A stretch of 64,000 bases of DNA, taken from the IMG/VR virus record IMGVR_UViG_3300031555_006030. One strand, written 5' to 3'. A program made the translations under genes and the position numbers. This document shows, piece by piece, positions 15,551 to 51,687 of the stretch. The notes beneath the pieces are model-generated. The model made no database searches. It was given only the letters and a program-made list of their open reading frames with translations, and was not told the DNA's origin. Numbering within the stretch: the first letter of the stretch is position 1; each line of letters opens with the position of its first letter. The DNA comes from a virus.

Positions 15551-15573
15551 AGGAGATAAAAGGAGTTAAAAAT

Positions 15574-23819: not shown

Positions 23820-26800
23820 ATGGGTAAAAATTAGGCAAGATTAGGTATTGGTATTGATTTTAATGTTAATACTGCTAGTTTAAATAATGTAAAGTAGTCT
23901 CTTGAGAAACTAAGAAAAATGAGCAAGGATGAAATTGAAAAATCTGGAGGCAATATTCTTGGCTTATCTAATATGAAAACAAAAAGCTGGAAAAACGATC
24001 TTGGCGATATGCGAAAAGAATTAGCATCATTGGAAAAGGCCTTTGAAGCAGCGTATAATCCAAAACTGGGTACATATGAATTAAATAAATTTAATGAAAG
24101 CTTGAAAGTGTCTGGAACTACTGCAGGATAGGCCTTTGCCACCATTGCAAATTATGGCACCGAGGGAAAAACAGCATTGCTTGATATGACTACAAGTATG
24201 TTAGCTATTGACCGAGTTGGGAAACAAACAAATGAAACCTTTAAAAAACTTGGCGATACAATGATGAATACCATTAGATGGACTATTACATCTACAATTA
24301 TTAACAGTATTTCAAGCGCTATTCAATAGGCATTTAATTATGCGGTAGATTTAGATGGTGCACTGAATGATATTATGATTGTTACCGATAAATCTTCGCG
24401 TGAAATGGAAAATTTTGCAAAATCTGCGAACAAGGCGGCAAAAGAGCTTGGCGCCTCTACTCGAGATTATACAGAAGCATCTTTAATATATTATCAATAG
24501 GGTTTAAGTGATGCAGAAGTTAAGGCGCGTACAGAAACAACTGTAAAAGTAGCTGCTATCACAGGATAGAATGCAGATGTTGTTTCTAAACAACTTACTG
24601 CTGTATGGAATGGTTATAAGGTTAGTGCCGAAGAGTCAGAAATGTATATTGATAAACTTTCTGCCGTTGCAGCAAGTACCGCAGCCGATCTTGAAGAATT
24701 ATCAACTGGTATGTCTAAAGTGGCTTCGGCTGCTAATGTTATGGGTGTTGGAGCTGATTCATTAAACGCTTAGCTTGCAACAATTGTTTCAGTTACTCGC
24801 GAAGCACCAGAATCTATTGGTACAGCTTTAAAAACAGTATATGCGCGTATGAGTGATATTGAAGCTGGACTAGATACTGAAACCACATTAGGTGAGTACA
24901 CTTCTCAAATGGCTCAAATGGGCATTAACGTACTAGATGCTAATGGTAAATTGCGTGATATGGAAGATATTATTAATGAAATCGGTAACGGATGGTCAAC
25001 CATGACTCGCGAATAGCAAGTATCCTTGGCGCAATCTATTGCTGGTACTAGATAGTATTCCCGTATGATGGCATTATTTGATAATTGGGGCATGTATCAA
25101 GAACAGTTTAATGTCTCTATGGAAGCTACTGGTACTTTAAATCAATAGCATATTGAGTACCTATAGTCGATTGAAGCACATCAAAACAAATTAAAAGCTT
25201 CGGCCGAAGGATTATATGATGCAATTTTTGATTCAGACTCTATTAAAGGAGTTTATGATGTTTTAAGTGGCTTTACTGAAATGGTAACTGGTTTAGTTAA
25301 AGGTTTAGGTGGAATGCCAGGTATCCTTTCTGTTATGTTAATGTTAATTACCACTCTTGGAAAAAGAAACATGCAAGATCTTATAATAAAAAGAGAGTCT
25401 AATAAGTTACAGGCATAGCTGTATAGAACATAGATGGAAAATAGTTAGGCTACTATTAAAAGTCTTGAAGAAGAAGTAAAAGGTCGTACGGAGTTAAAAG
25501 AATAGCTTCAAGACATCTTAGATCTTGAAAAAAGAATTATTGAATAGTCAGATAATTTAACTGATGATTAGTTTAATAATTTATAGGCTGGTATTAAACA
25601 ATATGCTGAAAATTTAAAGGCTGTTATTGCTATTGAAAAAGAATATAATAATATTAAAGCTGAACGAGATCAATTAAAGTAGTCTTTATCAGGTGAAACT
25701 ACTCAAACTTTTAAAAATGAAGCTGGCGAAAGAGTTGTAAGTTATGATTTAAAAAATAAAGAAAATGTAAAAGGAAGAATAGGAACAATAGAAGCGCGAA
25801 AGCGGTTATCCGACTTGGAAAAGGCAGAACATAAGGCCACTTTTAATCAAAATGCAAAATAGCTAACAAAACAAGAGTAGGATGAATTAAAATTTTTAAG
25901 AGAGTATTTACCATTAGCTGAGCGTAAATTAAAACTAGACGAAGAGTTAAAAAAAGCAGAAGAAAAATTAGCTAATGCAACTGAAAACACTGCTAACGCT
26001 AATAAAAACTTAAAAAGTAGTATGAATGACAGTCTTGATGCAGTAGGGCGCGCGGCAGTTGTGACTGAGGTTGCATAGGGGATTGCCTCGGTTGGCATGA
26101 CTGCAGCGATGGCTTCGGGGGCAGTACAATCTTTTGCAAGCGCTATGAGCGCTTCTGGAGGAGGCTTTTCAGATTTTCTTGGAGGTATTACCGGAGTAGC
26201 GGGTGCAGCTGGCTCAATGATAGGTAATATTACAGCTGCAAACAGAGCATTAAAAAAAGCAGGGCCTACTGCGCAAAGAGTAGGAGCAAAAATTTAGCTT
26301 GCTTTTGGCTGGGTAAGTCTTGTAATCGGTGCTCTTTCTGCGTTAATTTAGATAGTAAAGGAATTTAATTAGGCGCAAATAGATAGCGCAAATGCTACAA
26401 TTGAAGCAGAGCGAGAGAGATAGAAAGAACTTTAGAAAACCTTAGATTTAGAATAGTCTTTTTTAAAATTATATGAAACATATCAAAAAACTGGTGAAGA
26501 AACTGAATAGTTAATTTCTGCTACGGAGTAGATGTGTGAAGCTCTTGAAAGCTCTTAGTTAAAAGCTCTTGCCGCAGCTGGAGCATATGATTAGTTAGCA
26601 GCGTCTATTAGAGACAAAACTTCTGCAACATATGATGATTTGGCACAATCTGCTAATGCAGAAAAAAGCGCGGCAGAGACGAAATTAAACAAAGTAAAGG
26701 CTTCTAACACTGGAGGTATTGCAAATGCATCAGAAACTCTGGATTATATTAACGCAGGAGATTCTGTAACAGATGGAGATGCAGAAAACTTAGAAATTTT

Positions 26801-29423
26801 AAAAAATATTTTTGAAAACAGTAATAATGATAAAGTACGAGCTTTAATTTCACATAGCGATGACTATAATATTTGGTTTAAACGCATGGCCAATATGACA
26901 GCTGAAGAAAAATCATTATTTTACCATGCCCTTAAAGAGGCCACCGCGCAAGATGGATGGAATACAAGTTCAAAAAGTGAGCTAAATAAGAAAGTTCGAA
27001 AAATTTTAGATGATGAAGATTTTGCAGGAGCTGTTGCTGATTATGATACCGCAAATAAAACTGGTTCCACTGCGAAGGTTGCAAAATCAGTTAGTCAAAA
27101 CTCATATTCAAAATCGACCTCTATAAGCTAGTTTAAAACAGATCGTGAAGCTCTTATTTAGGATATAAAAAACTCACAAAATATTGACTATGACACCGCT
27201 GCTTCACGAGTAGATGCCCAATATGCTAAGGTAGGAGATTCAAATGCTTAGGCATTATTGGCTAGAACATAGTGGTTACAAGGTAGTGTTCAAGCAAAAA
27301 CTATGACACAAGAATTTGCGGATGAGTTAGCAGGAAAAATATCGTTAGATCAGCTAGGCACATCAGGTTTTAATGCATTAAAAACAATTGATTTATCAAC
27401 TTTTACCGGCTCTGCAAAAGATCTTGTGGATGCAGCAAAGACAAAGGCAGTTGAGCTACAAGATGAAGCATGGACTGAGTTTGGAGAATCTCGTCTTAAA
27501 GTTCTTGAAAAAAATTATAACGATTTAGAAAAAACTATTGATGAATCAGTTGGCTCGGATAAAGCAAAAAAGATTTTAGAGTTAAATAAAAATCTAGAGG
27601 CTTAGCAAGTAATTTTGTAGTCCCTTAGTGAAGAAGAACAAAAAGCTTTTGATAAAAAAGTAAAAGAATTTAAAACAAAAACAGGCATTGATTATACAAA
27701 TCCAGAAGATGCTAAGGACTTAATTGCAAAAAAATATGCTAATGATGAAGATAAAAGAGCAGAATATTTATAGTTGCTACAAGATGTAACTACTGCTGAA
27801 ATAGCCTATAACGATGCCACTAAAGCGGTTACTGAAAATCAAGAGCAAATATATCAAAAGAAACTTGAATCATTTGATACAGAGCTTGAATATTTAGACA
27901 CTTTAAAAAGTCGTTATGAGAGTCTTCAAGGTACTCTTTAGGAAGTTGCAGACTTATACAAGAAAATTTATGGTGAAAATGAATTTTCTAAAATGGTTGA
28001 GTTGTACGATTCTATGGCATTGTTATCTTCTACGTCTTATGGAAAAGCTGGAGAGAAATATCAAACATTACTAAATGCGACGAATCAGGGTGGTTTTACG
28101 GGCGCCGATGGGGTTTGGTATAGTTTTGAAGATGACGCCTCTCGACAAAAATATTTAGATGAGCTTGTTGCGGCAGGAGGAGATTATGTAAGTGCATTAA
28201 CAAGTCATGTTGAGCTTCTTAGAGAGAAGATGGCTAATAGTATTAATGCAGCTTTTCAAGAGAGTGCAAAAAGAGCTACTGGCAAAGGTCTTGATTATCT
28301 TGATCGAGAATGGAGATATATTCAAGAAGATGCAGATAAATATTTAGATACAGTAGAAAAAACTTATCGCATTGAAAACCTTGAACTTGATGTTAAAGAG
28401 AAAATTAATAAGTTGACTAATAAGAGCGCCTAGGCGCGCCTTTCTAGTGAACTTGATAGACAGCTTAGCGTTTTGCGCGAAATGGATAAGCTTTCTGAAG
28501 AAGATATTACTCGCGCCGAACAAAAACTTTCACTTCTTGAAGCTGAGATTGCTCTTGAGAATGCGCGTAATAATAAAAATAAGATGCGTTTAGTTCGTGG
28601 AGCAGACGGCACTTATAGTTATCAATATGTGGCAGATCAATAGGCTATTGCTGCCGCCGAGAGGTAGAAGAGAGAGGCTCAATAGGCAGTTTATGACTCT
28701 TCTAAATCAAGTTACATGGGCACTGTTGATGAATTTAATTCATTGCGCTAGTCTTTTGCTGAAGAATATGCGTCTGCCGCAACCGATAAAGACAAATAGC
28801 AAGTAGTGGCTAAATATAGAGAGTGGTTTGGCACAGCCATAGAGCGTAATCAAGTCGCTTTAGGTGATTTTAGAAAAGCTGGAGGAACAGCTAGTTCTGG
28901 AATGCAAACTTGGTTAGATGCTTTCTCTACTGGTGGTAGCAATGCTTTAATGGAGGAATTAATTAAAGCGGCAGAGGCTACTAATTACACCGATGAAATT
29001 AAATCTATCACTGGAGATGTTGGTAACATTGCTAGTGATATTAGAGGTATGGCTGAAAAATTTGGAATATAGCCATCTTCCAATGACACAGGAGGATATA
29101 CAGGTTCTTGGGGATTAGATGGTAGACTTGCAATTCTTCATGAAAAAGAGTTGGTTCTTAATAAACAAGATACTAGCAATATTTTGCAATCTGTAGAAAT
29201 TGCGCGAGCTCTTTAGTCTAAGATGCTTGATACTGTCTCTTCAATGCGCGTAACCCCAATGACGCGCGCATTTACAGATTCTAATAATTCTTCTACTATT
29301 GAACAAAGAGTAGAAATTCATGCAGAGTTTCCAAATGCTACTAATCATAGTGAAATTGAGCAAGCTTTTGATAATCTTGTTGGATTAGCTACATAGCATG
29401 CCTATAAAAATACTCGTGGATAA
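23820..29423 (+). CDS. tail tape measure protein (about 1867 aa; about 50 in-frame TAG codons)
   Basis: Track ORFs 23919, 26097, 26640, 27303, 27993 and 28806 are all congruent mod 3 with the ATG at 23820. The protein is long, coiled-coil-rich, alpha-helical and Ala/Gln-rich; it ends in TAA at 29421. Confidence 0.75.
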
Positions 29424-29844: not shown

Positions 29845-32013
29845 ATGAGTAATAAGACTATAGTAGAAGTTAATCTTGGATATGCTATAATTAAAGATGG
29901 TAAATTATATGTTGAATAGACCATTACTTATTCAGATGGCACTATAGAAACAGAAGAATAGTAGTTATCTTTTCCAGTGATTGACGCGGATGAAACTAAA
30001 GTTCCTAGTAATGTTGTTAATAGTAGCGATTAGAGAATTGCTAGAGCTTATGTTAGAGTTGAAGAAGGTGAGGAGAGTTAGGTTTATGGACCAATGTATT
30101 TTACCTCAAATATGGAAAATATTTTATTTACTCCTACTACTGAGGACGCTATTATCAAACATAAAAGGTCTTTAAAAGATGTGTTATTTGGCAAATTTGA
30201 TGATAACAACAAGTTAATAAACCATTATGACTTTAACCCAGATGTTACTTCTTTTTATCATGAAATTTTAAGTACCAAAAGCGAATGGGAAAAAGATCTT
30301 TTTGGTATTTATATGATAAAATCATACTCTGATTTAAAAGAAATTTACAAAAGTGATGGAAAAACTCCTCTTAGTAGCGAAGAAAAACAACGCTTTGAAG
30401 GGAAAAATCAAGGAGATTATTTAGGATCCTTCTTGGCGGAGGGAGATATTACTAGTTTACTCTTAATTCCTTTTATTGATGAAAAAGGAGCTTTGTAGTA
30501 TCGCTTAGTTGGAGAAGATGATTTAATATATTTTAATTTTGATATAACTAAGGGAGAAAACAAAACTTCTGTTTGGCAAGCTTTACTTGAGAATAGCCAT
30601 TTGTTAGATTTAGTAAGTGGTGAAAAATATATAGATCCAACTTATTTAATTGCGTCTCAAGAAGAAGTTCTAAATATAATTCCAGAATGGACAGATTCTA
30701 TTGAAGCAGAAAAAGAAACAAAATCTGCGGACAATAATAAATTAGTTACATTATAGGGATTAAAAGACTATGATAAAAAGCTAAGAACTTGGATTCCATT
30801 GGAACCAGGAGAGGGTAGTGATTCATTACAAACTCCACAGTTATCAGAAACCGATTCTCCAAATTCAGTAAAGGGAGAAAGATCATTTGCTATTGGGTCT
30901 GGCAACACTATAGATCAGGCTCATTTTATATCTGGCGCCATTGGTAAGGGATTAAAGTCCAACAATAGCTCAGAGTTGGTTATTGGAGAATATAACGATG
31001 ATACTCTTGATGGGTATGCTCCTTATTTTGAAGTGGGTACGGGTACATCTTCTTTAAATAGAAAAACCAAGTTTTATGTAACTGATAAGTTTGTATAGGT
31101 TAGTGGTAATAAGCTTAATTATATTAATAATAATTTTGCTAATGAAGATGGAAAAATTCTTAGACTGGAAAATACTTGTGGAATTGGAGGCACTTCATCT
31201 GGTTATCCTTATTTAAAGCTTTGGGAAATATATGATACTAATACAGGTAATAGAAGATTAGATATTGTTCCTTCGATTAATGCATCTGCGACTAATCGAC
31301 TAAATTTAGGATAGAGTTAGTATCGTTTTGGCAATATTTATACAGATGCGGTTATAACTAACAGTCTTACTGTTGAAGGAGACGGTTTTTCTGTTGGTAA
31401 AATATATGAGCTAGAAGAACTTTATTGGAAAAGTAGTAATAGTTCAATTGGTAGGTTTTTAAGATTTGAAGGTGATTTAATTGCTCCAGGTTTAGATTAT
31501 ACCATTAATCTTGGAAAAGATGAGTCAAGATTTAATAATATTTACACTTATAATATAGATATTTTAGGAAAAATCTAGAGTCATAAAATAGATTTAACAA
31601 GAACTAATCATAGTAGTTATGTATAGCAAGAATTGATTGTTTTTGAAAACGAATGTGGTTTTGGAAATAATTATAATAGCTATAAAGACGAGGGAGCTAA
31701 ACTTTAGCATTTTTAGATTTAGACTTGGAATGAGAGTGGAAGTAATCATGTTGCTCTTCAACCCTTTAGCGATAGTTTAATGGATTTAGGATATAATAAT
31801 CATACTTATAGAACCGTTTGGACGAATAGTATCAGAACCACAGATGGATACCTTCATTTTTATCCACAATTGGGTTTACATGGGGTTACAATAAGTTTAA
31901 CAGGTTTAAATATTGATACAGACATAAGTTCTTAGGATGATATTTCTAATGTTATAACAATCCTCTTTGCAGATGGTAAAAAAGGATATGTACCGATTCA
32001 ATTGAAATCTTAA
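29845..32013 (+). CDS. distal tail/baseplate protein (722 aa; about 20 TAG codons)
   Basis: ORFs 30094 and 30799 are in frame with the ATG at 29845 and joined through TAGs. The position after the tape-measure gene suggests a distal tail or baseplate role. Confidence 0.5.
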
Positions 32014-32144: not shown

Positions 32145-34352
32145 ATGGCAAGCAACAAAGAAATGAAAGCGCGTATTGTTAATAAACACGATATTGAAGC
32201 TAATTGGCTTAAGGCAGTTAATTTTATTCCTTTGTAGGGAGAAATTATTATTTATGATGCCGAAACTTCTTCTGATAGTCTAGAAGGAACGGGTAGAATA
32301 GAAAGAATAACACTGCCTAGGTTTAAAGTTGGAGATGGAGTTAGCACTGTTAACAATTTGCCTTTTACTAAAACAGAATTGGCTTATTACAAAGAAGATG
32401 TTGACAATAAAACAAGTGAAGTTTTTATAAAAAACACTGATGATTATTACAAAGACGGATCTATTTCTGGTTTTAAAGTTCAAGATAATCAAACTACTAT
32501 TGTTGCTGAGGATAAGCACGGAGGTCATGATTATGGACAAGACTTGCACCATACAGATTCATAGATTGAAGTATCTACGCAGTTTCTTAAGTTAAGTAAT
32601 GAAAGAAAAGATGAAATCTGGATACGCGATGAAAACGATTATTTCACAGGTGAAACTGAATATTATACAAATAATAGTTCGATAGAAATGAAGAACGGTA
32701 ATGTTTCTATTGAGACTTCAGGAAAGCTTTTATATAATAATAATGAAGTAGGAACAGCAGGTAAAAAAACTTCTAATGAAGGAGAGGTTTTTAACGACTA
32801 TAAGTATAATAAAGCTTCTGGATTTAGATCTCACGCAGAGGGTTCTCAAACTCAAGCAACTAAAGACAATACTCATGCAGAGGGTTTTAGAACGCATGCA
32901 GCTAACAATAACGCGCATGCTGAAGGTAGCGGAACAACCGCAAGTGGAATATCCTCTCATGCAGAAGGTAATGAATCGATAGCTATGGGTAATTATTCTC
33001 ATGCAGAAGGTATAAAAACTCAAGCAAACCAAACAAGCGCGCATGCAGAAGGAGATAATACCCTTGCTAATGGAGAAGGTTCTCATGCAGAAGGTATATT
33101 GTCTGAGGCTGTTGGACCAGCCTCTCATGCCGAAGGATCTTCAACCAAAGCTATGGGAGTAGCGTCCCACACAGAAGGCAGAGATACGGTTGCAAAGGGC
33201 GAAGCAGCTCATGCAGAAGGACATTCTACTATTGCAGAAGGAAAAGAATCTCATGCGGGAGGATTGAACGCGAGAGCGGTTGGAGATTATTCTTTTGCTC
33301 ATGGTATTCGAGCAGAGGCGCTTGGTAAAAATTCTTATGCTTTGGGTGCAGACACAGAAGCCACAGCGGATCATGCAATAGCAATGGGTAATAAAACCTT
33401 GGCTAGTGGAACAGAATCTATGTCTATTGGTTATGGAACGAGTGCACTAGGAAATCACTCTTTTGCGCAAGGTGCGTTAACTCTAGCAAGAGGAGAAAAT
33501 TCTATTGCTACTGGTTAGGGAACGGTTGCGGCTAAAGATAATTCTTATGCTGGTGGTTATGGAGAATATGGTGATACTTATACTTTTTATAAAGTATCTG
33601 ACAATATTGGAGTATGCCAAAATGTTGAAAATGATTTTATAAATGGATTAGAGTATCCAGTTGTTCTTCATTATCCCAATGCTGTTACGATGTGTATAAT
33701 GACACCTCATCATGTATATGATGAGACTGCTGGTTTCCATTATATGGAGACACAATGTAGCTTTAGCAGATCCTTAAAGGAAGAGGTAAGCTCTTTTACA
33801 GTTATAAAAGCAACCATAGCCAATCATAATAATTCTTTTGCTCATGGAGTTAGAGTTGAAACAGGTAGAGATAATCAAGCAGTATTCGGACAATATAACA
33901 AAGTAGATTCTTCCGCTTTGTTTATTATTGGTAATGGAGATAATAACACCCCTAAAAACGCTTTTGTGATTACTGATGATAATAAAGCTTATATAGATGA
34001 CAAACAAATCCTTGTAAAAGGAGATGTTCCTACTAAAATTAGTGAATTTACAGACGCTAAAGACTATGTAGAAAAAGTAAAGAATTCTGCAGATGCTCGA
34101 GAGTCTGTTACAATAGAAAGAGGTTTTATGTCATCTGAAATGAGTAAATCTTTAGTATTTATAGATCCAGATAAAGTTGAATTACGCAGTAGTGTTTCAT
34201 TAGTAGATCCTGGTAGCTCAAAAACTCCTTATTCAACAATTCTTTCTGTCGGTGAAAAAGTAATGATAAATGACAAAGAAGTTACAACTGTTGATATGGT
34301 TCCAACAATTTCATTAGCTCTTGCTAGTGATATTGAAAGTTTATTTAATTAA
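32145..34352 (+). CDS. tail fiber/receptor-binding protein paralog 1 with S-H-A-E-G beta-roll repeats
   Basis: ORFs 32358, 32688 and 33690 are in frame with the ATG at 32145. It has more than 10 consecutive 14-residue repeats of the form HAEGxxTxAxGxxS. It ends with the QAVFGQYN...ALFIIGNGxxNTPKNAF module. Confidence 0.6.
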
Positions 34353-34408
34353 TGCCACGCATAACTGAAAAGATGTTATGATGTTTAAATTTGAAAGGAG
34401 ATAAATTT

Positions 34409-37400
34409 ATGGCAAATTATGATAAAATTATTGATTTTGAACTTCTTCAATTGTATGACGAGAAAATTAAAAACTACATTGTAGAACAAGCTCCTATAGT
34501 TGAAGGCGTTTATAAATTTAAAGGCAGTGTTAATGAATATAGCCAACTTCCTGCGCTGGCCGAAGTTGGAGATGTTTATAATGTTGTTAACTTAAATGGA
34601 ATGAATTTTTCTTGGACAGGTAGTCAATGGGATGCGCTTGGCGCCGAACTTGTGGGTAAGCGAGGTTCCGTAAATAGCGCGGAAATATTTAATGATTATT
34701 CAAGAAATACAGCTACTGCTATTTATGCACACGCCGAAGGCGCAAATACTCATGCAACTGGCGCAAACTCTCATACCGAGGGTTGGGGAACACACGCAAC
34801 AAACAACAATGCGCACGCTGAGGGCGGTGGCACGCATGCTGAGGGCGCAGATTCGCATACTGAGGGTAATAGTACTTATGCAACTGCTAATACGGCTCAT
34901 GCAGAGGGGTATGCAACTAGAGCGGAGGCAGCATAGTCTCATGCAGGCGGTGATCACTCTAATGCAAAACATGCAGTTTCTTTTGTGCATGGTTCTTATG
35001 TAAACTCTTCTCGTACTAATCAAGCTGTCTTTGGACAATATAATGCAGATGATACAGAAGCATTATTTATTGTGGGTAATGGATCTTCTAATAATAGAAA
35101 AAATGCTTTTAAAGTAAATATAGATGGAACCGCTTATGCAGGAGATAAAAAGATTCTTGTTGAAGGAGATGTCTCAGACAATGGCTCTTCTGTTGGATAG
35201 CAAGGAGCTGGTATTACAGATGAAATCTTCAATGGTTATTCTGGAAATGGGTTAAACACAGCGTCGGGCGGCTATACGCATGCTGAGGGGTATGCAACAA
35301 AAGCAACTAATAACAATGCCCATGCAGAAGGCAATAGCACAGAAGCCAGTGGAGAACACTCTCATGCAGAAGGGTATTTTACTATAGCTTCGGCAAATCA
35401 AACGCATGCTGAAGGCGCCAATACAAAGGCAACGGCTAGCGCCGCACATGCTGAGGGATATCAAACTGCGGCTGAGGGGAATTTTTCTCATGCGGAAGGC
35501 GCATATAATAAAGCAACAGGCGGATCTTCTCATGTTGAAGGCGGTCATGCAAGAACGGCAGATCAATTAACTCGTCGCGGTGGTAGAAACATTGCGGCAG
35601 GCGGTTCTGCGCATGCCGAGGGTATAAGCACATGCGCAGGAAGTGAGTTTAATCATCTTGGAGCACATGCTGAAGGCGCTTATACTAAAGCTTTGGCGCC
35701 CTATGCGCATGCTGAAGGTTGTGGTTATATTGGAGATATCTCTTATCAAGGTTCAATGAGTCCTGCGGAAGGAGAAACTCAAAAAACTAATATTTGTATT
35801 ATCCCTTCTCTTGCTAGTGAATTCCGTAGTGTTGGAGATATTTTAATTCTTCAAAGTATAGAAGAACCAGATAAAGAATATGATGTAACTATTCAAGAAA
35901 TTAAAGATGATGGTTCTTTGGTATTGGATCTTTCTTTTGGTATAAATTTTACATTTAACGCTAAACGAGTTTATCCTACTACAGCTAATGGTAAGGCATC
36001 ACACACTGAAGGATATGGTACGTATGCCACCAATGATTTTACACATGCAGAAGGAAATAGAGCACGAGCAACCGGGGATTGGGCCCATGCTGAAGGTGGT
36101 TATAGCATTGCGCAAGGTAGTGCTGCGCACGCAGAGGGTGGACATGTTAAAGACAGGAATAACGATATCTATATTGGTGGAGGAACCAACGCTATTGGAG
36201 GAGCTTCTCACTCAGAGGGTATGACAACTCAAGCCGGTTCAGAGTTTACTCATTATGGCGCACATGCTGAAGGAGTATTCACGAAGGCTCTTGGCGAAGG
36301 CGCTCATGCTGAAGGAGCAGGATTTATTATTTCTCTTCCATTTACCGCAGAAGGTGGAGACGAACATCCGAATGCAAAAGTTGGAGAAGCTACAAATGCA
36401 TTTACAATATCATTTCATTCCGATGAAGAGGCCGATTCTTTTTCTTCTTATCTTAGTCTCGGTGATGTTGTTAGATTTACAGAATTAAGCTTGCCAACTA
36501 AAAGTTTTGATGCATAGATTGAAAACATTTCTGTAGGAGGTTATGCTTCTTGTCGGATAAAAAATAGTTTATTAAAATATGGAACTAGTTATAGCATTTC
36601 AAAAGTAATATTTAACGAAGCACAAGGCAAAGCTTCTCATGTAAGTGGTATTGGAACAAAAGCAACGGCAGATGCTCAAACTGTTATTGGTAAATTTAAC
36701 GAAACTAATGATGATGCTTTATTCATTGTAGGAAATGGAACATCAGATACTCGAAGCAATGCTTTTACTGTAGACACAGATGGAAATGCTTATGCTGGCA
36801 ATGGCGGTAAACTTATAACAGCAAGCGAAAAAGGACTTTTCTCTAATGCTTTAAAAGGTAATATAAGCGGAGAGGTTATTAGCATTATTGATGTTTCACC
36901 TATTGTACATGAAATGGGCGTTAAGGTAGAGAGTAAAAATCTTATATCCTATCCGTATTATAACACCTCAAAAACAGAAAACGGAGTAACTATTACTGAC
37001 AATGGAGATGGTAGTCTAACACTTAACGGAACTGCAAGTGGTAGTATTATATTTTACTTGCAGAACAAGCCTACGCTTAGCGAGGGTACATATACAATAA
37101 GCGGTGGTACTACTGATATAGTTGTTTACGCAAGAAAAAATGCTACTACATGGATTGAAACAGGATCGGGAGCGCCTTCCACGGGTGTTGTAAATAAAGG
37201 TGATGTAATTAACATGATTGGGGTGCTAATCAATAGCGGTAAAACCTTCGACAATGTAACCATCTATCCACAGATTGAAAAAGGTACAGTAGCAACGGCA
37301 TACACGCCATATATTGAGGATATAAGCGTAGTAAGGATGTACGCACAAGGCAAAAACTTATTTAATAATGATACATCATTAATTAAAAAGTTAAACTATA

Positions 37401-37942
37401 CGGGTAGAGATGGCAGTAAATATACAAGATGCGGTTATGAAATACATTTGCCTGCTGGTGAATATGTATTAAGTGTAAAAACCAATGTAACAAATAGATA
37501 TATTTATACTTGTGTTAATGATACAGAAGGAAATTTTATAACAGATGCTATGTATACATTAGAAGGCACAATTAAAACAGATGGTTATGTCGTAGCCGCC
37601 GCGAATATACATCCTGTTGTTTATAAGCTAAAAGAAAATTATGTTATTTATATATACGACGGGGTAGATGAAAACGAAGAGAATGCAAAAGTGGTATTTA
37701 GCCTTATGCAAATTCAACTTGAAAACGGCAAGGTTATTACAGAATATGAACCTTTTATCGAGCCTATTGAGTACACAGTAGCAGCAGACGGCACGGTAAA
37801 GGGAGTAAATTCTATTTATCCTAACATAACACTTACAACAGATACACATGGCGCTTTAATTAGTGCAGAATATAACAGAGATTTAAATAAAGCTTTTGCC
37901 GAGCTTTATAACGCAATTATTTCTATGGGAGGTAATGTATAA
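34409..37942 (+). CDS. tail fiber/receptor-binding protein paralog 2 (1177 aa; two HAEG-repeat blocks and two NAF modules)
   Basis: Track ORFs 34391, 34985, 35693 and 36914 are all in one frame. The gaps contain only TAG (at 34934, 35198 and 36515); ends in TAA at 37940. Confidence 0.6.
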
Positions 37943-38136
37943 TGTTTAGCATGTAGCAGTTTATAAAAAGGGGACTTTTGGATGCAGTTGGAAAGATGTC
38001 TGATTATCAAGTTATTCTTAATGCTGCGGGATGGCATGAGAAGGGTGTCTTGACGGAAGACGATCTGAAGGAGATCGACGAAAAGATCAATGCTCAATAT
38101 CCTGAAGTTGAAACAGAAAACGAAGAGTTAGTTTAA
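37942..38136 (+). CDS. XkdX-like small protein
   Basis: A 64-aa protein ending in GVLTEDDLKEIDEKI. It follows the fiber gene with a TAATG overlap; one TAG codon. Confidence 0.4.
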
Positions 38137-38149
38137 TTAAAAATAAAAA

Positions 38150-38185
38150 TCTCTTATAGCCTACTAAAAAGTAGGCTATAAGAGG
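38150..38185 (+). terminator. perfect 14-bp hairpin ctcttatagcctac/gtaggctataagag
   Basis: Seen directly; the downstream T-run is weak. Confidence 0.4.
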
Positions 38186-38263
38186 CTTAAAATGAAATTA
38201 TAAAAGCCGCTATTTGTCTGGAAAGATGATGAATAGAAAATTCTTTGAAAGGAGATTAAGAAT

Positions 38264-40270
38264 ATGGCGACAGTAAATAATAGTAGTGTTCGTATTATTA
38301 ATAAACATGATATTGAAGCTAAATGGTTGACAGTTTCTAACTTTATTCCAAAAGCAGGAGAAATCATTGTTTATGATATTGAGATAGATAAAGATGAATA
38401 GGTTTTAGATTTGACTGGGACAGGTAGAACGAAGCCTTATACTTACCCTCGATTTAAAATTGGTGATGGAAAGACGATCTTAAAGGACTTGCCCTTTTAG
38501 GGAGTTGGAAAATCGTATTCAGAAGGTGAAGTATTTAATGACATTAAAAATAATGAAGCCACTGGTAAATTTTCACATGCAGAGGGTTCTTAGACAAAAG
38601 CTTTAAGAGCTTATTCACATGCTGGAGGATACGATTCAAAAGTTAGCGGGAAAAAAATTGCAGTTGTTGATTATGAAGACTGGGTTGATACCGAAGATAT
38701 TCAAATTTTTAATGAAACAGAATAGGAAGATGGTAGTATATCTATAACTTTTCCAAACGATGAATATTTTTATTTTAGTACCCAATGTGCATTACAAGGA
38801 ATAAATATTAAAATTGGAGATAAAATTCGATATAATTGGACATATGGGGGACAAACTGGTGAAGGTAGTGGAGAAATAACAGATATTTGGAATAATTTTC
38901 TTTAGGTAAATGGTAGTTATATTTTTGCTATAGAAGAAGCGTAGGATTACACTTATTCTAATTGGCAAATAAGCAAAGCAATATATGGGCAAACAGAGGC
39001 GGGTATTGCAGCTTTTGTTCATGGAACCGGACTTTCTGCAACAGCAGATAATCAAGCTGTCTTTGGACAGTATAATGAAAATGACGCAGATGCGTTGTTT
39101 ATTGTGGGCAATGGAACGCAGTATGCATAGAAAAACGCCTTTGTTGTTGATAACGAAAAGGCTGTTCTTCATGGAGAATAGATTGCAACACTTAGTGATA
39201 TTCCAAAAGTTCCTACAAAGATTAGTGCATTTACAAATGATATTGGTTACACTAGTGTTGGTAAGCCCTATGGGGAAGCTGGTGGAGAGGTGTTTAACCA
39301 TACCACTTACAACAAAGCTTCAGGTACCTTTGCTCATGCAGAAGGATCTCAAACTCAAGCAACAAATGATAATACACATGCAGAAGGTTTTAAAACTATA
39401 GCGAGCGGTTTAAATGCACATGCTGAGGGTGGTGCAACAACTGCAAGTGGAGATAATTCTCATGCAGAAGGAAATCAAACTATTGCAAGTGGAAAATACG
39501 CTCATGCTGGTGGCGCAAACTCAGAAGCTAGTGGTAACTACTCATTTACACATGGTATTCGCTCTAAAGCAACTGGTAAAAATTCTTACGCCTTTGGCGC
39601 AGATGTTCAAGCTACAGCAGACCATGCGATGGCAATTGGTAATGAAACTTTGGCATCTGGAACGGAATCAATAGCTATCGGATATGCAACTGCTGCTTTT
39701 GGGAGACATTCTATTGCAAGTGGCGCATTAACAGTGGCAGAAGGAGAAAATTCAGTCGCAGGAGGTTTAGGAACCGGTATTGGTCCTGGTTATACCATTA
39801 AGGGAACGGGCTTAGGCCATTTTGTTATTTCTGAAACAGTAGCATGGGTAGCTGGAGATTTAGTAATAATTAGTCTTGTAAATGATTCTCGATTATTAGT
39901 GGCAAAAATTGAGAGCATTGTTCGTAGCGAAGATAATGTTTACACAGAAATAACAATGAATCCTCAATTCGAAAACATAGATATTGTTGGTGCTACTATT
40001 AAATTAGCATAGCCTTCTTTAGCTCAAAAAAATGCTTCTTTCGCACATGGTATTTCAGTACAGTCTACTGTAGATGCGCAAGCAGTATTTGGAAAATATA
40101 ATGAAGTTAATAATGATGCTTTATTTATTATTGGCAACGGAAGTAGCAACACTCCTTAGAACGCCTTTATTGTAACAACTTCAAACGAAGCTTATTTAAA
40201 TGGTTCACCCGTTCTGACCGTGGAGAATATTAGCACTTTCATTCCATCAGCAGAAGGAGGTAGTTTCTAA
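38264..40270 (+). CDS. tail fiber/receptor-binding protein paralog 3 (HAEG repeats; two NAF modules; about 11 TAG codons)
   Basis: In frame with ORF 39290. Its N-terminal 40 aa are paralogous to the gene at 32145 (NKHDIEA.WL...NFIP..GEII.YD); ends in TAA. Confidence 0.6.
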
Positions 40271-40668
40271 TGACAAAATATCTTATTGATGAAAGCACTT
40301 TAACAGCTCTTGGAGATGCCGTTCGAGAAAAAACAGGAAGTAGCGCTACTTTGTCCTTAAATGAAATGATTGATTCTATTAAAAACATCTCAGGAGAAAA
40401 TGGAGGAAATAATGGAGTAGGATCAGTAGATTCTGTAGGATATGTTGTTTAGAATGCGGATTCAGGCGGCGGTTTTGAATTTTCTCCTGATCCACAATGG
40501 TACAATAATGCAGGAATGTTAGTTTTTGTTAAAAGTCCAACTAATAAAACTGGATTTGCAACAATTAATAATTTGGGTGGAAATGACTATGAATTAACTC
40601 CAAGTTATATTGACATTTGGGGAGTAGATGAATTTGAGGGGTCTTCTATTTATAAATATATATTATAA
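40270..40668 (+). CDS. hypothetical small tail-associated protein
   Basis: Its ATG overlaps the previous stop; one TAG codon; ends in TAA. Confidence 0.4.
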
Positions 40669-40798: not shown

Positions 40799-41303
40799 AT
40801 GTCAGAATTTTTACAATTGCTAGCTACATATGATATTGTAACAATTTTAACTATTGCTATTCTTGTAATAGTTGGTATTTACAAATTAATTGTATGGAGT
40901 AAGAAAACTTGGGCGCAGAGAGAAGTCTTTAAGAAAGAAAATATTGAAAAAGGTGTAGAAATTCAGCGCCAAAAAGATAAGGAACTTGAGGCTGAGCAAG
41001 AAGAAGAAACTCGTTTACAAAGACTTGAGTCAGCTATTGAAGCTCTTGCTCTTGTAAACGAAGAACAACAAAAACATATTGCTCTTTTAATTGAGTCTGA
41101 TTAGCTTAACATCAAAGCTTGGATTAAAGATCAGCATGAGAAATGGATGGCGCTTGGCGCAATAGATAGTCAAAGTTTAGACCTATTGGAATAGCGCTTC
41201 GGAATATACGAAGAAGAGGGCGGCAATAGCTGGGCGCGCCGCCTTATGGATGATATTAGAGGATTACCTTTAATTACCGTGGTTCCAGTTCATCCAGAAT
41301 AGT
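40799..41303 (+). CDS. membrane protein with an N-terminal transmembrane helix and coiled coil (holin-like or XhlA-like candidate)
   Basis: Hydrophobic segment TYDIVTILTIAILVIVGIYKLIV; in-frame TAG codons; ends in TGA. Confidence 0.35.
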
Positions 41304-41335
41304 GATAAATTAAGAGATAAAAGGAGTTGATAAAT

Positions 41336-43804: not shown

Positions 43805-46474
43805 ATGGCACATAGTAGATATGAATATTTGTCTAATCCAGTTATGCTAGATTATATCTCTAAACTTTAGCACCGAACTTAGTGGACTAGATTAATTATT
43901 TTAAATCGACAAGATTTGCCCCTTAAGGCAATCGAAGGGCGCGCCACTGGAGGTTCTATTACAATAAATAGTGCCTCCGCCGTAAGGCGCACAGGTTCTA
44001 TTACTCTTGTTACCGACTATGATAAAAGTACTAGAGCTGATACTGATGATCTTGATATTATGAATGAGGTCACAAATATAAAAACGCTTATCTCAATGAA
44101 TAAACGAGTTTAGGTTGAAATTGGTATAAAAAACACTGGAGGTCAGTATCCTGACTTTGATATTTTCTGGATACCCTTGGGTACTTTTGTCATTTCAAAT
44201 GCCTCGGTTTCTTATAATAATCAAGGTATCACAATAAGCTTGAAACTAAATGATAAAATGGCTCTTTTGAATGGAGAAGAAGGAGGCACTTTTTCTATTG
44301 AAATGACTCATTCTCCATTAGAAGATGGTCCAGTAAAATATAAAGACTTAATAAAGTCTCTAGTTTGTATCATGGGTGAGTTACCAGAATGGCAGGTAGT
44401 TATTGAAGATATTCCAGATACTACTGAATAGATTTTGACTTGGAATCCAACTATAGAGGTAAAAGGATTTGGACATAATGATGAATATGGAATAATTAAT
44501 GTTGATAAAAGTGGAGAGCCCCCTAATGTAGATATTATAGAAGGTTCGACAGAAATTGTAATAGACTCAGATAGAACAGACTTGCCTTATGGTTTAGAAA
44601 ATTATCTAAAAACAAAACTTCCTACTGATATATGGGTAATTTTTTTTAATAGCGGAACTGAATAGTGGGAGAACTTTAAAGCTTCTAACTATGAATATAA
44701 ACCTGTTACTTTTAATGATGGAATAATAAAACAATGTTATACTTTTCTAATAGACAAAGGCTGGCAACCAGAGAGGCGTTTTGTAAATAAAGTATGGTTT
44801 AGAGGGCTTGTTGACGAACCTATTACTGGGTTACCTTCATTGTATTTAAATACTAAAAACTCTGAAAATATTGAAGGAAATATACAAGTTGGGTTTTTAT
44901 CAACTGATAATGAGATAAGATAGAGTTACGATACTGTTTTTTGGCCCGGAGCTGTTGTAGGATATACGACTACTGATTTTACATATCCAACAGGTAGCGA
45001 ATTAACTTCATAGGTAGGAGAATCAATCTAGTCTGTTTTAGAGAAAATTAAAAATTCTCTAGGTAACTATGAATATTTCTTTGATGTGGATGGAGTATTT
45101 CATTTTCAAGAAATCAAAAACTACTTAAACGAAGGAAATACTTCAGATAATTGGGAAACAGCTTTAGTAGATAAGTATTTTCTAAAAACGAGAAAAAACA
45201 AAGCTGTATACTCATTTAAAAATAGTGAATTGATAACTTCATATTCTAATGATCCTTAGTATACCAATATTAAAAATGACTATGCTGTTTGGGGAGAGAC
45301 TAATGATTAGTAGTCTTCAATATATTATCATTTAAGACTTATGAAGGATTTAGACTAGGGCAAAAAAGAGTGGGGCGTATTTTATAAAGATAATTATTAT
45401 AGTCTTAGAGGATAGTTAGAAGAGATTGCACTTGTATCTAACGACCCAGACTTACAAGAGGGAACAACAGGGAGTGGCTCTACCAACAATGTGATATTTG
45501 GAACATGGCTATTAAATGATCAAATATCTTTTAAAGATACTTCTTTTTCCTCTAAAAATAATATATCAGCTATTGGAAAAACGGGATTAACATTATAGGT
45601 TAATAATGAAGAAAGTAAATTGTCTTTTTAGTCCGAAGATAATTCTACTGAAACTATTTATGAAAATGGCTCATGGAGTTTAAACTCAGGAAGAATATTG
45701 ACTTTTGTAGGAACAGTGGAACAGGATAGTGACTTTTACAACTGGCTTAGACAAAATGCAGTTCCTTGTTAGAAATATACTTTTTCTGACTGGCGCATTA
45801 ATTCTTTTTTAGAAGCTAAATTAAAACAGTAGAATAAGCAAACTTTAAAACCTCTTGAGTATGAACTTTTGAATTTTTTACCTTCTTCCTTTAGAATTGC
45901 AAATATAACAGGAAAAAAATGGGAGTTCGTAACAAAACCTTTTATAACCTACTTTATAGATGCTATTGATGTTAATAGTCCTAATCTTCCACCTGAGATT
46001 GATATAAAAAACTTTTCAATAGAAGATATTGGATAGCGTACAAAAACAATCTAGGATAAAGATATTGATTGTATTTTTGTAGATAATTATCCGCAATATC
46101 TATATTATCAAGAAGTAGCTCCTTTAACAAAAAAAACCCCAGTAGACTATTCAAATTTTGAAGTAGCTAATACAGTAAATGCTAACGAATAGCTATTGGG
46201 TGCAGACTTTTTTGAAAAATCTGTTACTACATCATTAGCTCAAAATCCTGCATATGACGCTTTGCGCATAAGTATCCATGAACATTTAAGTTATAATAAT
46301 AATATTAATATATAGACAATGCCTGTTTATCATCTTGATGTAAACTAGCGCATCGAAGTTGAAAATGATGAGGCTGATATTCATGGTGACTATATTATTA
46401 AGAGCATTACCATTCCACTTGGTTTGGATGGCATGATGAATATTTAGGCGCAAAAGGCAGTAGAGCGAATTTAA
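43805..46474 (+). CDS. hypothetical large tail/baseplate protein (889 aa; about 25 TAG codons)
   Basis: ORFs 43916, 44177 and 44435 are in frame. I walked every codon from 44666 to 46474 and found only TAG internal stops; ends in TAA. Confidence 0.5.
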
Positions 46475-50649: not shown

Positions 50650-51150
50650 TTAATTAGAGCCGGTTGATCCAAAACCACCTTCTCCACGAGCGGTAGTTCC
50701 AATATTATCTACTTCATCAAATACCACAGAGATATAAGGTTGAACAACAAGTTGAGCAATACGCTCACCATGTTCAATATATTGTAGTTCATTACTTTCG
50801 TTTTTTAGAGCCACGATAATTGGACCTCGATAATCTGCATCAATAACTCCGACTTTATTCGCGGGTGCAAGTCCTCTTTTTGTTGCCATACCAGAGCGTG
50901 CATAGATTGCGCCAAACGTGCCTTGAGGAAGCGCAATAGCAATGCCTGTAGAAATCTTGCGTACTTCGCCAGGAAGAATTGTAGCTCGATCTAAACTACC
51001 AAGATCAGCATGAAGATCATAACCCGCTGCCCACTTGCTACCTTGGGTGGGCGCATGTGCAGAAGGGGAAAGTTTTACATAATCAATATGAGTATTCCAA
51101 TTACCATTTTCATCACACGATTTTACAGTTACCATATCAAAATGCTCCAA
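50650..51150 (-). CDS. dut: dUTP diphosphatase
   Basis: Motifs AAGYDL, ARSG, GVIDADYRG and RGEGGFGSTG are present. Confidence 0.8.
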   Translation of the reverse strand: MEHFDMVTVKSCDENGNWNTHIDYVKLSPSAHAPTQGSKWAAGYDLHADLGSLDRATILPGEVRKISTGIAIALPQGTFGAIYARSGMATKRGLAPANKVGVIDADYRGPIIVALKNESNELQYIEHGERIAQLVVQPYISVVFDEVDNIGTTARGEGGFGSTGSN

Positions 51151-51388
51151 TCTTATATTCTACGCTTGCTTCTCCACAAGGCTCTTTAGCATCATCAAAT
51201 ACTTTAACTAAAGTTACAATAAAATATTCATCAATGATTTCGCCTTTTGCTTTACGCTCTTTTTTTACAGAAGAGTACTTAGAAAGTACATAACGCCCAT
51301 CTGCTTTGGCTGCACTGATAAGCTCTGTTGCTTCGGCTTCAGTGTCTGCGCGATGTTCTTCTGTTGTTTTCAATAAATATTTAGCCAT
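51137..51388 (-). CDS. hypothetical protein
   Basis: 83-aa ORF. Confidence 0.4.
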   Translation of the reverse strand: MAKYLLKTTEEHRADTEAEATELISAAKADGRYVLSKYSSVKKERKAKGEIIDEYFIVTLVKVFDDAKEPCGEASVEYKIGAF

Positions 51389-51409
51389 ATCCTTTTATCT
51401 CCTTTAGTA

Positions 51410-51676: not shown

Positions 51677-51687
51677 ATTATATCTCC

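Follow-up and report, generated by a model that had tools for sequence, protein, structure and literature searches.

Paralogous tail-fibre genes of a TAG-recoded gut phage encode modular β-roll heads with a probable His/Glu polar ladder

The DNA analysed here (the window, 64,000 nucleotides of the IMG/VR virus record IMGVR_UViG_3300031555_006030) carries three paralogous genes on the + strand, F1, F2 and F3, that start at 32145, 34409 and 38264. Their identification as paralogous fibre genes in a first-pass annotation was confirmed, and the genes are real as called there, with two amendments: they are intact only when TAG is read as Gln, a recoding absent from that annotation, and the last gene of the cluster ends at 40270, the previously given end at 40668 being that of a separate ORF.

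30877..31092, + strand: short YadA-like and cap-like stretch, without His/Glu, inside a 722-aa gene at 29845-32013
32145..34352, + strand: F1, tail-fibre gene, 735 aa with TAG as Gln (three in-frame TAG codons, at 32235, 32562 and 33516)
34409..37942, + strand: F2, tail-fibre gene, 1177 aa with TAG as Gln (three in-frame TAG codons, at 34934, 35198 and 36515)
38264..40270, + strand: F3, tail-fibre gene, 668 aa with TAG as Gln (10 in-frame TAG codons)
40270..40668, + strand: separate 132-aa ORF with one TAG, without functional assignment

The cluster sits in the tail-morphogenesis module of a phage, between a tape-measure gene and tail genes: a gene of tape-measure size (1867 aa, 23820-29423) lies upstream, as do the portal, capsid and terminase genes, and a tail protein (phrog_1887, 43805-46474) is encoded downstream. 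The 722-aa gene upstream of F1 shows a weak BLAST match to F3 (1e-5), and on this similarity it may possibly be a distant fourth paralogue. The gene following the cluster had been described as XkdX-like (PF09693), an assignment that was not borne out, the 132-aa ORF having no match in Pfam (E≤1), PHROGs or NCBIfam and none by BLAST among the retrieved proteins.

Under the standard code each fibre gene is broken into 2-11 pieces, and the region might on that account be read as the decayed, stop-broken pseudogene fragments of a bacterial adhesin. Against that reading, every internal stop in F1-F3 is TAG, with no TAA and no TGA, and only with these codons read through are the genes intact at 735, 1177 and 668 aa; furthermore, in-frame TAG codons number 199 in 35 late genes versus 3 in 13 early genes (14.2 versus 0.77 per 1000 codons). 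Fibre homologues are collinear across the TAG positions, Gln is the residue most commonly aligned to the TAG codons of the terminase (5/7 in the closest relative), no autotransporter anchor was found with Pfam or NCBIfam, and related recoded phages carry a suppressor tRNA, designated tRNA-Gln(CTA) or tRNA-Sup(CTA) (PMC10607447). Decay of an adhesin thus has a negligible probability, and was counted as refuted. No tRNA was found in the 64-kb window, and hence no suppressor tRNA lies within it; Rfam at its gathering threshold likewise found nothing in the whole window, so that the split terminase harbours no group I intron recognisable by Rfam. For annotation, the consequence is that gene calling splits the fibres and most virion genes of the window into spurious fragments whenever TAG is not translated as Gln.

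The source is a TAG-recoded gut phage, probably of the genetic code 15 type (TAG to Gln) and distantly akin to the phAss-1 group, and its host is probably a member of the Bacillota. With phAss-1 and the proposed Phassvirus group, TAG-to-Gln recoded phages of the human gut, it shares a gut origin and a concentration of TAG recoding in virion genes (PMC10607447), and the capsid proteins of the two are related (47% identity). The kinship is nonetheless distant, and for phAss-1 a fibre with pectate-lyase domains has been described, not one with HAEG β-rolls (PMC10607447).

The repeat that characterises these fibres, H[ATSV][EG]G at a strict spacing of 14 residues, is present 11 times in F1; F2 has 24 copies, distributed over three arrays, and F3 has 7, over two. 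Exact HAEG is present 32 times in the three proteins, against 0.07 expected from composition and a maximum of 3 in 2000 shuffled sequences, and the 42-nt DNA copies of the repeat are only 60-75% identical to one another, which indicates that it is kept by selection on the protein and not by slippage or composition; a compositional artefact, raised at the outset as the outcome that would undo the repeat, is thereby excluded. With the register set by anchoring on HAEG, 58 layers were delineated in the window, in which Gly occupies position 8 without exception (100%), with Ala at 6 (81%), Ser or Ala at 4 (84%), Thr or Ser at 11 (78%) and Ala at 13 (79%). His stands at position 5 in 71% and Glu at position 7 in 64%; most layers therefore lack the Val/Ile that define the core positions 5 and 7 of YadA_head, and hydrophobic residues at these positions are confined to C-terminal layers. 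When counted with anchors independent of positions 5 and 7, the two residues proved to be tightly coupled, with 2284 joint occurrences out of 2435 and 2457 (1233 expected) and, in a second count, 4815 out of 5032 and 5026.

The left-handed β-roll head with its core of Val/Ile is a module familiar from textbooks on adhesins, and the proposal that the repeat is of the YadA/Hep_Hag type was upheld by several lines of comparison. Pfam YadA_head (PF05658, cut-off 25) matches F1 with 57.5 bits (1.5e-15; best stretch, residues 392-417) and F3 with 44.7 bits (1.6e-11); F2, which gave no YadA_head match, is paralogous to both, and PHROG 25468 matches F1 (5.9e-46), F2 (7.4e-47) and also F3. Searches of PDB sequences with phmmer returned only the heads of trimeric autotransporter adhesins (TAAs), namely BpaC (1.3e-15), UspA1, CbpF, YadA and EibD, and aligned the hydrophobic layers of F1 to YadA 1p9h (SYALG with SIAIG, AIAMG with AVAVG, SMSIG with SVAIG). 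Upstream of these aligned layers come the His/Glu layers, at a distance that is an exact multiple of 14 residues, and the alignment together with the strict register assigns His to layer position 5 and Glu to position 7, where YadA has the Val/Ile of NSVAIG, as had been proposed. As a stand-in for the window head, a homologue, P0003, of 50% identity and the same architecture was modelled (AF2, monomer); its head reached a pLDDT of 95-99, its His/Glu layers have the strand pattern of the hydrophobic layers, and Foldseek matched it to TAA heads only (7o23, BpaC, at 6.6e-9, then 3s6l, 3pr7, 9u93 and 3wp8). The repeat is thus one layer of a YadA-type left-handed parallel β-roll.

An identity of the fibres as trimeric autotransporter (type Vc) adhesins was nevertheless rejected, on the lack of an anchor and on the phage context. 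No Pfam or NCBIfam family for a TAA anchor, stalk or neck was found in F1-F3, the NCBIfam TAA models scoring 16-49 bits against cut-offs of 600-3000; the YadA anchor and stalk were likewise absent from the precomputed Pfam assignments of the 120 best homologues, and from six genome ORFs and eight representative matches scanned with Pfam.

The heads are modular, and their parts are arranged along the three chains as follows.

32145..32384, + strand: F1 N-terminal anchor domain, ~80 aa, common to F3 (80% identical DNA repeat D5)
32781..32819, + strand: F1 β-roll N-cap, GEVFNDYKYNKAS, the same motif preceding the HAEG arrays in F2 and F3
32820..33281, + strand: F1 His/Glu array, 11 consecutive 14-residue layers
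33282..33575, + strand: F1 hydrophobic layers of canonical YadA type, continuing the register of the His/Glu layers
33576..33830, + strand: F1 insert domain, ~85 aa, between roll and cap, differing among the paralogues
33831..34025, + strand: F1 cap, hydrophobic terminal roll layers with SFAHG / QAVFG / LFIIG / AFVIT at layer positions 4-8
34026..34349, + strand: F1 divergent C-terminal domain, ~108 aa
34718..35170, + strand: F2 head A, His/Glu layers running without insert directly into cap 1
35267..35737, + strand: F2 head B, His/Glu array in which two spacings are short and irregular
35990..36334, + strand: F2 head C, His/Glu array
36626..36829, + strand: F2 cap 2 (D4 copy at 36673)
36839..37939, + strand: F2 C-terminal tip, putatively receptor-binding, a pair of β-sandwich domains that resemble carbohydrate-binding modules
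38564..39199, + strand: F3 unit 1, with two layers of His/Glu type, then an insert of 119 aa, then cap 1
39323..39784, + strand: F3 unit 2 roll, 5 His/Glu-type and 6 hydrophobic layers
40031..40228, + strand: F3 cap 2 (cap copy at 40075)

The N-terminus of F1 is 48% identical over 68 aa to that of a homologue, P0095, whose precomputed Pfam assignment is PF18454 (Mtd_N), and the N-termini of F1 and F3 together show 37-49% identity to it; a direct Pfam search gave no Mtd_N match, and the anchor domain may be Mtd_N-like by transitivity only. The array of F1 comprises 10 layers with His at 5 and Glu at 7 followed by S-H-A-G-G, and passes into the hydrophobic layers SFAHG, SYALG, AIAMG, SMSIG, SFAQG, SIATG and SYAGG; the roll of F3 unit 2 closely resembles it, F1 having six more His/Glu layers. 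In F2, head A leads into cap 1 through SHAGG, SFVHG, QAVFG, LFIVG and NAFKV. The conserved module that had been described at the end of each gene is indeed present, in five copies (33872, 35017, 36673, 39049 and 40075), yet it is not a separate entity: the cap consists of hydrophobic C-terminal layers of the same roll, kept in its 14-residue register, and in the P0003 model it has a pLDDT above 90. That the module is followed by a divergent C-terminal domain holds for F1 and F2 but not for F3, in which ~13 aa, almost no C-terminal domain, remain after the last cap. The 1177-aa product of F2 had been taken for a fusion of two fibres with two repeat-plus-module units; it does have two caps, but with three HAEG arrays, and F3 also consists of two repeat-plus-cap units. 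Multi-head chains are normal in the family (the top-ranked HAEG matches have a median of 3 arrays per chain), and the fusion was accordingly dropped.

The insert domain of F1 has no homologues by BLAST among the retrieved proteins, and in the P0003 model its counterpart is all-β with a pLDDT of 50-66; Foldseek matches to the N-terminal β-barrels of F1-ATPase and HerA were weak, fell in this low-confidence part and were rejected. The C-terminal domain of F1 gave no match in Pfam or by BLAST among retrieved proteins. The tip of F2, for which a TAG-free segment of the window was used in the fold analysis, resembles carbohydrate-binding modules, and a scan of IMG/VR with this tip found no close relative; a DUF6929 match in F2, weak at 15.9 bits where the cut-off is 27, was disregarded.

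While the repeat had been called unusual, this description did not survive a search for relatives: 4,162 cluster representatives match it at E≤1e-30, spread over genomes and phages of Bacillota and Bacteroidota. The HAEG form, abundant in the phages and prophages of two or more bacterial phyla, is among the commonest of phage-fibre repeats, and F1-F3 are unexceptional within the large family of phage fibres to which they belong. In isolated phages members of this family are annotated as tail fibres or tail spikes, and the same 14-residue repeat as in F1-F3 is present in the Flavobacterium phage immuto 'tail spike', in the Verrucomicrobia phage P8625 'tail fiber protein', in PHROG 25468, and in the 'peptidase G2 autoproteolytic cleavage domain-containing protein' of Bacillus, Peribacillus and Paenibacillus. 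These phage and prophage fibres share with the window fibres the cap motif Q-x-V-x-G-x-[FY]-N ... G-N-G ... N-A-F, 45-50% identity over the head, and the same types of N-terminal anchor. In most of them the chain closes with an intramolecular chaperone, Peptidase_G2 or Peptidase_S74, or opens with collagen repeats; the window fibres have neither, no recognisable trimerisation chaperone (PF13884 for S74, PF11962 for G2) having been found in F1-F3 with Pfam, and differ further in their end domains, such as the tip of F2, and in their in-frame TAG codons. Mtd_N, BppU_N and collagen repeats are the other domains that accompany the repeat, never a YadA anchor in those examined, and together with the chaperone ends they supply a context of trimeric fibres, among which anchors at the N-terminus and tips at the C-terminus are exchanged as modules. 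No paper describing an SHAEG or HAEG repeat was found in the literature searched (a mention of a β-roll in CASP16 was unrelated), and the PDB holds no match to the HAEG form beyond TAA β-roll heads, so that the structure of one trimer would account for a very large number of phage receptor-binding proteins that are called 'hypothetical'.

The solved heads of YadA (1P9H), BoaA (3S6L), UspA1 and EibD have in common with F1-F3 the 14-residue layer, the invariant Gly at 8 and the Gly at 1, small residues at 4, 6, 11 and 13, the strand pattern and the presence of several heads per chain, and between the SVAIG layers of YadA and the hydrophobic layers in F1 and F3 the alignment is direct. They differ in carrying Val/Ile at positions 5 and 7, where most layers of F1-F3 carry His and Glu; moreover, F1-F3 are encoded by a phage, within a tail gene module, are synthesised in the cytoplasm, and are without signal peptide, neck, stalk or β-barrel anchor. 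In the solved trimers of BpaC and YadA, the core that surrounds the threefold axis consists of positions 5 and 7 (PMC9543794), and by homology to these TAA trimers His and Glu would face inward in F1-F3, which lends support to the polar ladder along the trimer axis that the first-pass annotation had suggested. The closest match in sequence and fold is BpaC, a Burkholderia outer-membrane adhesin whose C-terminal head (PDB 7O23; Kiessling et al. 2022) has a hydrophilic core, with Thr at 5, Asn, Ser or Thr at 7, and buried solvent (PMC9543794); its Thr/Asn core was reported as striking, and its hydrophilic layers are sealed by a few hydrophobic ones at the C-terminal end of the roll (PMC9543794), a polar-then-hydrophobic layout that is shared with the phage fibres. 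Because the core of BpaC is hydrophilic, a Val/Ile core is not obligatory for the fold; its Thr, Ser and Asn are, however, uncharged, whereas the core of F1-F3 would be ionisable, with three His and three Glu per layer.

F1-F3 are, in our judgement, probably paralogous trimeric tail fibres, serving in receptor binding or adhesion, with modular β-roll heads and an axis-facing polar ladder of His and Glu. Each chain would form one to three head units, in which an N-cap (GEVFNDY...) would be followed by a left-handed parallel β-roll with layers of 14 residues, in some units by a small β insert, and finally by three or four capping layers of hydrophobic character (xAVFG, LFIxG, NAFxV). His (5) and Glu (7) would, in most layers, point to the threefold axis, so that every trimer layer would have three His and three Glu buried in it, charge-neutral as a set. 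They would form a hydrogen-bonded and salt-bridged ladder, possibly together with water or ions buried as in BpaC, which would set the register, lend stability to the trimer and be sealed by the C-terminal hydrophobic layers. The host surface would be bound by the variable outward positions and the divergent C-terminal domains, in F2 by the two carbohydrate-binding-module-like β-sandwiches. The HAEG form would place charged, titratable residues in the core of a β-roll; this His/Glu core is an undescribed and structurally unsolved variant of a known fold, none being reported in the structures and literature searched, and a trimer structure would show whether it is tolerated through a salt-bridge ladder, water or ions.

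It is conceivable instead that His and Glu are exposed to solvent on a roll packed otherwise than the autotransporter heads, and form a charged stripe acting as a functional surface, for example in binding teichoic acid or polysaccharide or in sensing pH. Charged residues usually lie at the surface, the AF2 monomer of P0003 is confident without partners, and the trimer is drawn from homology. The HAEG layers, however, have no other conserved large hydrophobic residue able to make an interface, positions 1, 4, 6, 8, 11 and 13 being Gly, Ser, Ala, Gly, Thr and Ala, and within the same chain positions 5 and 7 switch to F/Y/I/M and L/M/I/F with register and strand pattern unchanged. His and Glu are also the most invariant positions (91% and 89%) and the outward ones vary, where a binding surface should vary; an exposed stripe is accordingly very improbable.

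Metal binding by a phage fibre is established for the tip of the T4 long tail fibre, gp37, in which seven metal sites, the His-x-His iron sites, are spread along a needle of intertwined strands. The trimeric gp37 shares with the HAEG fibres, in the form proposed for them, an H-x-[H/E] motif that recurs on a β-strand turned toward the threefold axis; it differs in fold, and its sites do not recur every 4.8 Å. By analogy, the fibres of the window could be stacks of metal sites in which the three His and three Glu of a layer, or the Glu of adjacent layers, coordinate ions near the axis. The placing of H-x-E on one face of a β-strand, at axis-facing positions, and the joint occurrence of both residues in about 94-96% of the layers having either, would be in keeping with such sites, and three His with three Glu would, by inference, suit octahedral coordination. 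The conserved succession S-H-A-G-G, S-F-x-H-G (Gly, then His, at position 7) would leave a cavity above a His triad, and BpaC can bury solvent on its threefold axis (PMC9543794). The layers of the β-roll are, on the other hand, just 4.8 Å apart (PMC9543794), and one ion per layer over ≥10 layers would be unprecedented; position 5 of BpaC lies off-axis, at the groove between monomers (PMC9543794), which makes a single His3Glu3 site per layer geometrically doubtful. Such a stack of metal sites is therefore considered unlikely, and we are similarly doubtful of the broader idea that the arrays are a continuous buried column of ionisable residues, three His and three Glu every 4.8 Å, binding a file of metal ions or protons; if true, this column would make the fibre a rigid rod dependent on pH or metal, and would be present in thousands of phage fibres. 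For the preferred polar ladder, three buried Glu per layer near the axis are electrostatically demanding and may require ions, a need that would shift the mechanism toward the ion-binding alternative. Boundary layers carry Gln and not Glu, the terminal layer of many relatives being Q-H-[VA]-Q-G, and this substitution fits hydrogen bonding better than obligate metal binding.

Under the standard bacterial code, the region at 32145-40668 yields only many short open reading frames; when it is translated straight through, three long continuous frames appear that are similar to each other. A first-pass annotation of the sequence had listed these as three fibre genes, and their continuity and mutual similarity were borne out, but the TAG read-through on which they depend had been left unstated. 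Every internal stop is a TAG, and each frame ends with TAA. The frames at 32145-34352, 34409-37942 and 38264-40270 hold 3, 3 and 10 TAG codons, respectively; with TAG read as glutamine, these genes, termed F1, F2 and F3 in that order, encode proteins of 735, 1177 and 668 aa. The two strands of the window differ in gene content:

5128-49806, plus strand: portal, capsid, terminase, a tape-measure-sized gene and tail genes
50650-63849, minus strand: DNA polymerase III alpha, NrdD, helicase and GIY-YIG endonucleases

Window-wide, 35 late or structural genes in the plus-strand span contain 199 in-frame TAG codons (14.2 per 1000 codons), and 13 early or replication genes in the minus-strand span contain 3. 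The tape-measure-sized gene (23820-29423, 1867 aa) alone holds 49, and the capsid, scaffold-like and tube-like genes (12473-16152, 20466-21347) hold none. At the 7 TAG positions in the C-terminal half of the terminase, glutamine is the commonest residue among standard-code relatives; an unannotated human faecal scaffold of 12.3 kb (L022, MT836163.1), which is the nearest public relative within the annotated collection (70% identity in the terminase and 62% in the capsid), carries an ordinary glutamine codon at 5 of these 7 positions. The window's capsid protein shares 47% identity with its counterpart in phAss-1, a phage of the human gut for which TAG as glutamine and suppressor tRNAs have been described (PMC10607447); no tRNA genes were found within the 64-kb window. 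From the restriction of internal stops to TAG, the distribution of TAG on the plus strand, the glutamines at terminase TAG positions and the kinship with phAss-1, it follows that F1-F3 are real genes solely under TAG-to-Gln recoding. The phage is of a known kind of TAG-recoded gut phage.

Within these frames, successive copies of the motif H[ATSV][EG]G lie exactly 14 residues apart: F1 has 11 copies, F2 has 24 in three arrays and F3 has 7 in two. Exact HAEG is observed 32 times, against 0.07 expected by composition and a maximum of 3 across 2000 shuffles. The repeat, which had been reported as strict, is thus genuine. The corresponding 42-nt DNA units share 60-75% identity, with a conserved core of CAT-GCN-GAR-GG. 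A compositional artefact with no homologs, which had been named as a possible refutation, fails against the divergence of these units; the repeats are old and kept by protein-level selection, and are not products of slippage.

Pfam YadA_head scores above threshold in F1 and F3, on layers directly downstream of the HAEG arrays, and PHROG 25468 (unknown function) matches the arrays themselves in all three proteins. A phmmer search against all PDB sequences returned only trimeric-autotransporter heads (BpaC at 1e-15, UspA1, CbpF, YadA, EibD, AtaA and BoaA). Structure modelling was carried out on P0003, a retrieved standard-code homologue that is 50% identical and has its N-terminus, head, insert, cap and C-terminus all as in the window protein; AlphaFold2 gave a pLDDT of 95-99 in the head and >90 in the cap, and a Foldseek search of this model against the PDB returned β-roll heads only, with BpaC at 6.6e-9. 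Because Pfam, phmmer, the P0003 model and Foldseek all give β-roll heads, the 14-residue unit is one layer of a YadA-type left-handed parallel β-roll, in agreement with the YadA-type repeat proposed in the first-pass annotation.

In F1, 18 consecutive layers stack in perfect register: ten of S-H-A-E-G, then S-H-A-G-G and S-F-A-H-G, and then six more (S-Y-A-L-G, A-I-A-M-G, S-M-S-I-G, S-F-A-Q-G, S-I-A-T-G and S-Y-A-G-G), a succession that F3 matches. HMMER pairs SYALG, AIAMG and SMSIG with YadA SIAIG, AVAVG and SVAIG; by this alignment of in-register layers, His takes the place of Val and Glu that of Ile in YadA NSVAIG, which is the register that had been argued earlier. In the P0003 model, the HAEG and hydrophobic layers form one continuous roll with an identical strand pattern. 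Investigators of BpaC, numbering the glycine as 8, reported that positions 5 and 7 form the threefold-axis core, with position 7 closest to the axis and position 5 supporting it at the inter-monomer contact, and that even positions point inside each chain; that core is hydrophilic (Thr at 5; Asn, Ser or Thr at 7) with buried water, and hydrophobic layers are found only C-terminal-most (PMC9543794). By homology to such solved trimers, three His and three Glu per 4.8-Å layer of F1-F3 would be buried around the trimer axis, which supports the earlier suggestion of a polar ladder, and the C-terminal hydrophobic layers would seal this core.

The first-pass annotation had also allowed for a metal-coordinating ladder. 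When layer anchors were chosen without positions 5 and 7, His at 5 and Glu at 7 were found to be coupled in both sets of layers, with 2284 joint occurrences of 2435 and 2457, respectively, in the first (1233 expected) and 4815 of 5032 and 5026 in the second. Three His and three Glu would make each layer charge-neutral, and the polar stretch of many relatives closes with a Q-H-[VA]-Q-G layer, in which Gln replaces Glu, preserves hydrogen bonding and is a poor metal ligand. These last layers, together with the spacing of 4.8 Å and the off-axis place of position 5 in BpaC (PMC9543794), make a stack of His/Glu metal sites along the axis improbable. The coupling, charge neutrality, Gln boundary layers, spacing and off-axis position together make a ladder of hydrogen bonds or salt bridges, in which water or an occasional ion may take part, the preferred reading. 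Each long His/Glu array is closed by a conserved two-layer transition, S-H-A-G-G and then S-F-x-H-G, which places Gly and then His at the axis position:

33240-33323, plus strand: two-layer transition in the layer stack of F1
34928-35011, plus strand: two-layer transition in the layer stack of F2
39491-39574, plus strand: two-layer transition in the layer stack of F3

This step would leave a cavity above a His triad on the threefold axis, a candidate single ion or water site, and under the metal reading the change from Gly to His at position 7 would be the most plausible single metal site. Most other family members end the polar array with Q-H-[VA]-Q-G instead.

Each gene carries the conserved module QAVFGQYN...ALFI[IV]GNG...NAF...DG.AY, as had been noted, but it is not a separate entity: it stays in the 14-residue register, with xAVFG, LFIxG and AFxVx occupying layer positions 4-8, and in the first head of F2 the HAEG layers pass into it uninterrupted. 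The module closes the C-terminal end of the β-roll as a hydrophobic cap. Its five copies (DNA repeat family D4) are divided as one in F1 and two each in F2 and F3, and HAEG arrays of unrelated genomes precede the same cap. Between roll and cap, F1, the second unit of F3 and the third head of F2 carry a divergent β insert of ~85-120 aa, which is poorly predicted in the P0003 model and has no relatives detectable by BLAST among the retrieved proteins. With a head unit taken as N-cap, β-roll, sometimes an insert, and cap, the three proteins are organised as follows:

32145-34352, plus strand: F1, an anchor followed by a single head unit and ~108 aa of C-terminal domain
34409-37942, plus strand: F2, an N-terminal anchor of another type, three arrays of HAEG layers, two caps and a tip of 365 aa
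38264-40270, plus strand: F3, an F1-type anchor, a minimal first head unit that bears a large insert, a second unit and almost no C-terminal domain

A divergent C-terminal domain after the module, described for each gene, accordingly holds for F1 and F2 but not for F3. The F1 and F3 anchors are 80% identical in DNA, and the second unit of F3 closely parallels the F1 head unit, with six fewer His/Glu layers. Among the 148 best matches of an exhaustive search, the median number of arrays is three (maximum 12), and each match has 20-78 H[AST]EG motifs. Chains with several heads are the norm in this family, and the F2 layout, earlier regarded as a two-fibre fusion, is more aptly seen as an ordinary tandem arrangement of head modules of the kind known from autotransporter adhesins.

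A word-indexed search gave >5,703 matches at E≤1e-5, and 120 of 120 among the matches listed have at least three HAEG motifs, each 14 residues from the next. The exhaustive search covered 1.84 billion cluster representatives, of which 25,691 matched at E≤1e-3, 14,959 at E≤1e-10 and 4,162 at E≤1e-30. Genomes that encode relatives come from Brevibacillus, Robinsoniella, Lachnospiraceae, Oscillospiraceae, Paraprevotella, Bacteroidaceae and Lentimicrobiaceae; isolated Flavobacterium and Verrucomicrobia phages encode them too, annotated as tail spike or tail fibre. Accompanying domains include Peptidase_G2, Peptidase_S74, Mtd_N and collagen; no autotransporter anchor was found in the Pfam lists of the 120 best homologues or in the six genome ORFs and eight representatives scanned. 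Within this very large family of phage tail fibres, F1-F3 are unexceptional. YadA-like domains within phage fibres have been noticed previously (PMC3909814); no description of the His/Glu form was found in the literature searched, and no PDB structure carrying it was matched by phmmer or Foldseek. The interest extends beyond this window to the whole family, an abundant and structurally uncharacterised β-roll with a would-be His/Glu trimer core.

Directly upstream of F1, a 722-aa gene (29845-32013) has 16 TAG codons, no family match and a short YadA-like and cap-like stretch without His/Glu (30877-31092); it may be a fourth, distant paralogue or a fibre-attachment protein. The 132-aa ORF at 40270-40668, previously called XkdX-like, has no XkdX or other family match in Pfam, PHROGs or NCBIfam. 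The 168-aa protein directly after the cluster (40799-41305), whose sole match is PHROG 4105 (unknown function), has a transmembrane-like segment at its N-terminus and a coiled-coil region, and may act in assembly or as a holin-like protein.

The large terminase subunit is encoded in two parts, 7587-8207 (206 aa) and 9228-10373 (381 aa), which together match the contiguous 589-aa TerL of Geobacillus virus E3; an HNH_3 and NUMOD homing-endonuclease ORF (8491-9210) occupies the gap, and no group I intron was detected in the window at the Rfam gathering threshold. GIY-YIG ORFs are interspersed among replication and nucleotide-metabolism genes:

52363-52842, minus strand: activase-like neighbour of NrdD
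52839-54839, minus strand: anaerobic ribonucleotide reductase NrdD
54766-55443, minus strand: putative GIY-YIG endonuclease ORF, from N-terminal sequence alone
58047-58889, minus strand: GIY-YIG endonuclease ORF, Pfam-confirmed
59104-61620, minus strand: DNA polymerase III alpha

Positions 1-5000 of the window have a GC content of 0.40-0.44 and a GC skew unlike the rest, with short ORFs on the minus strand.
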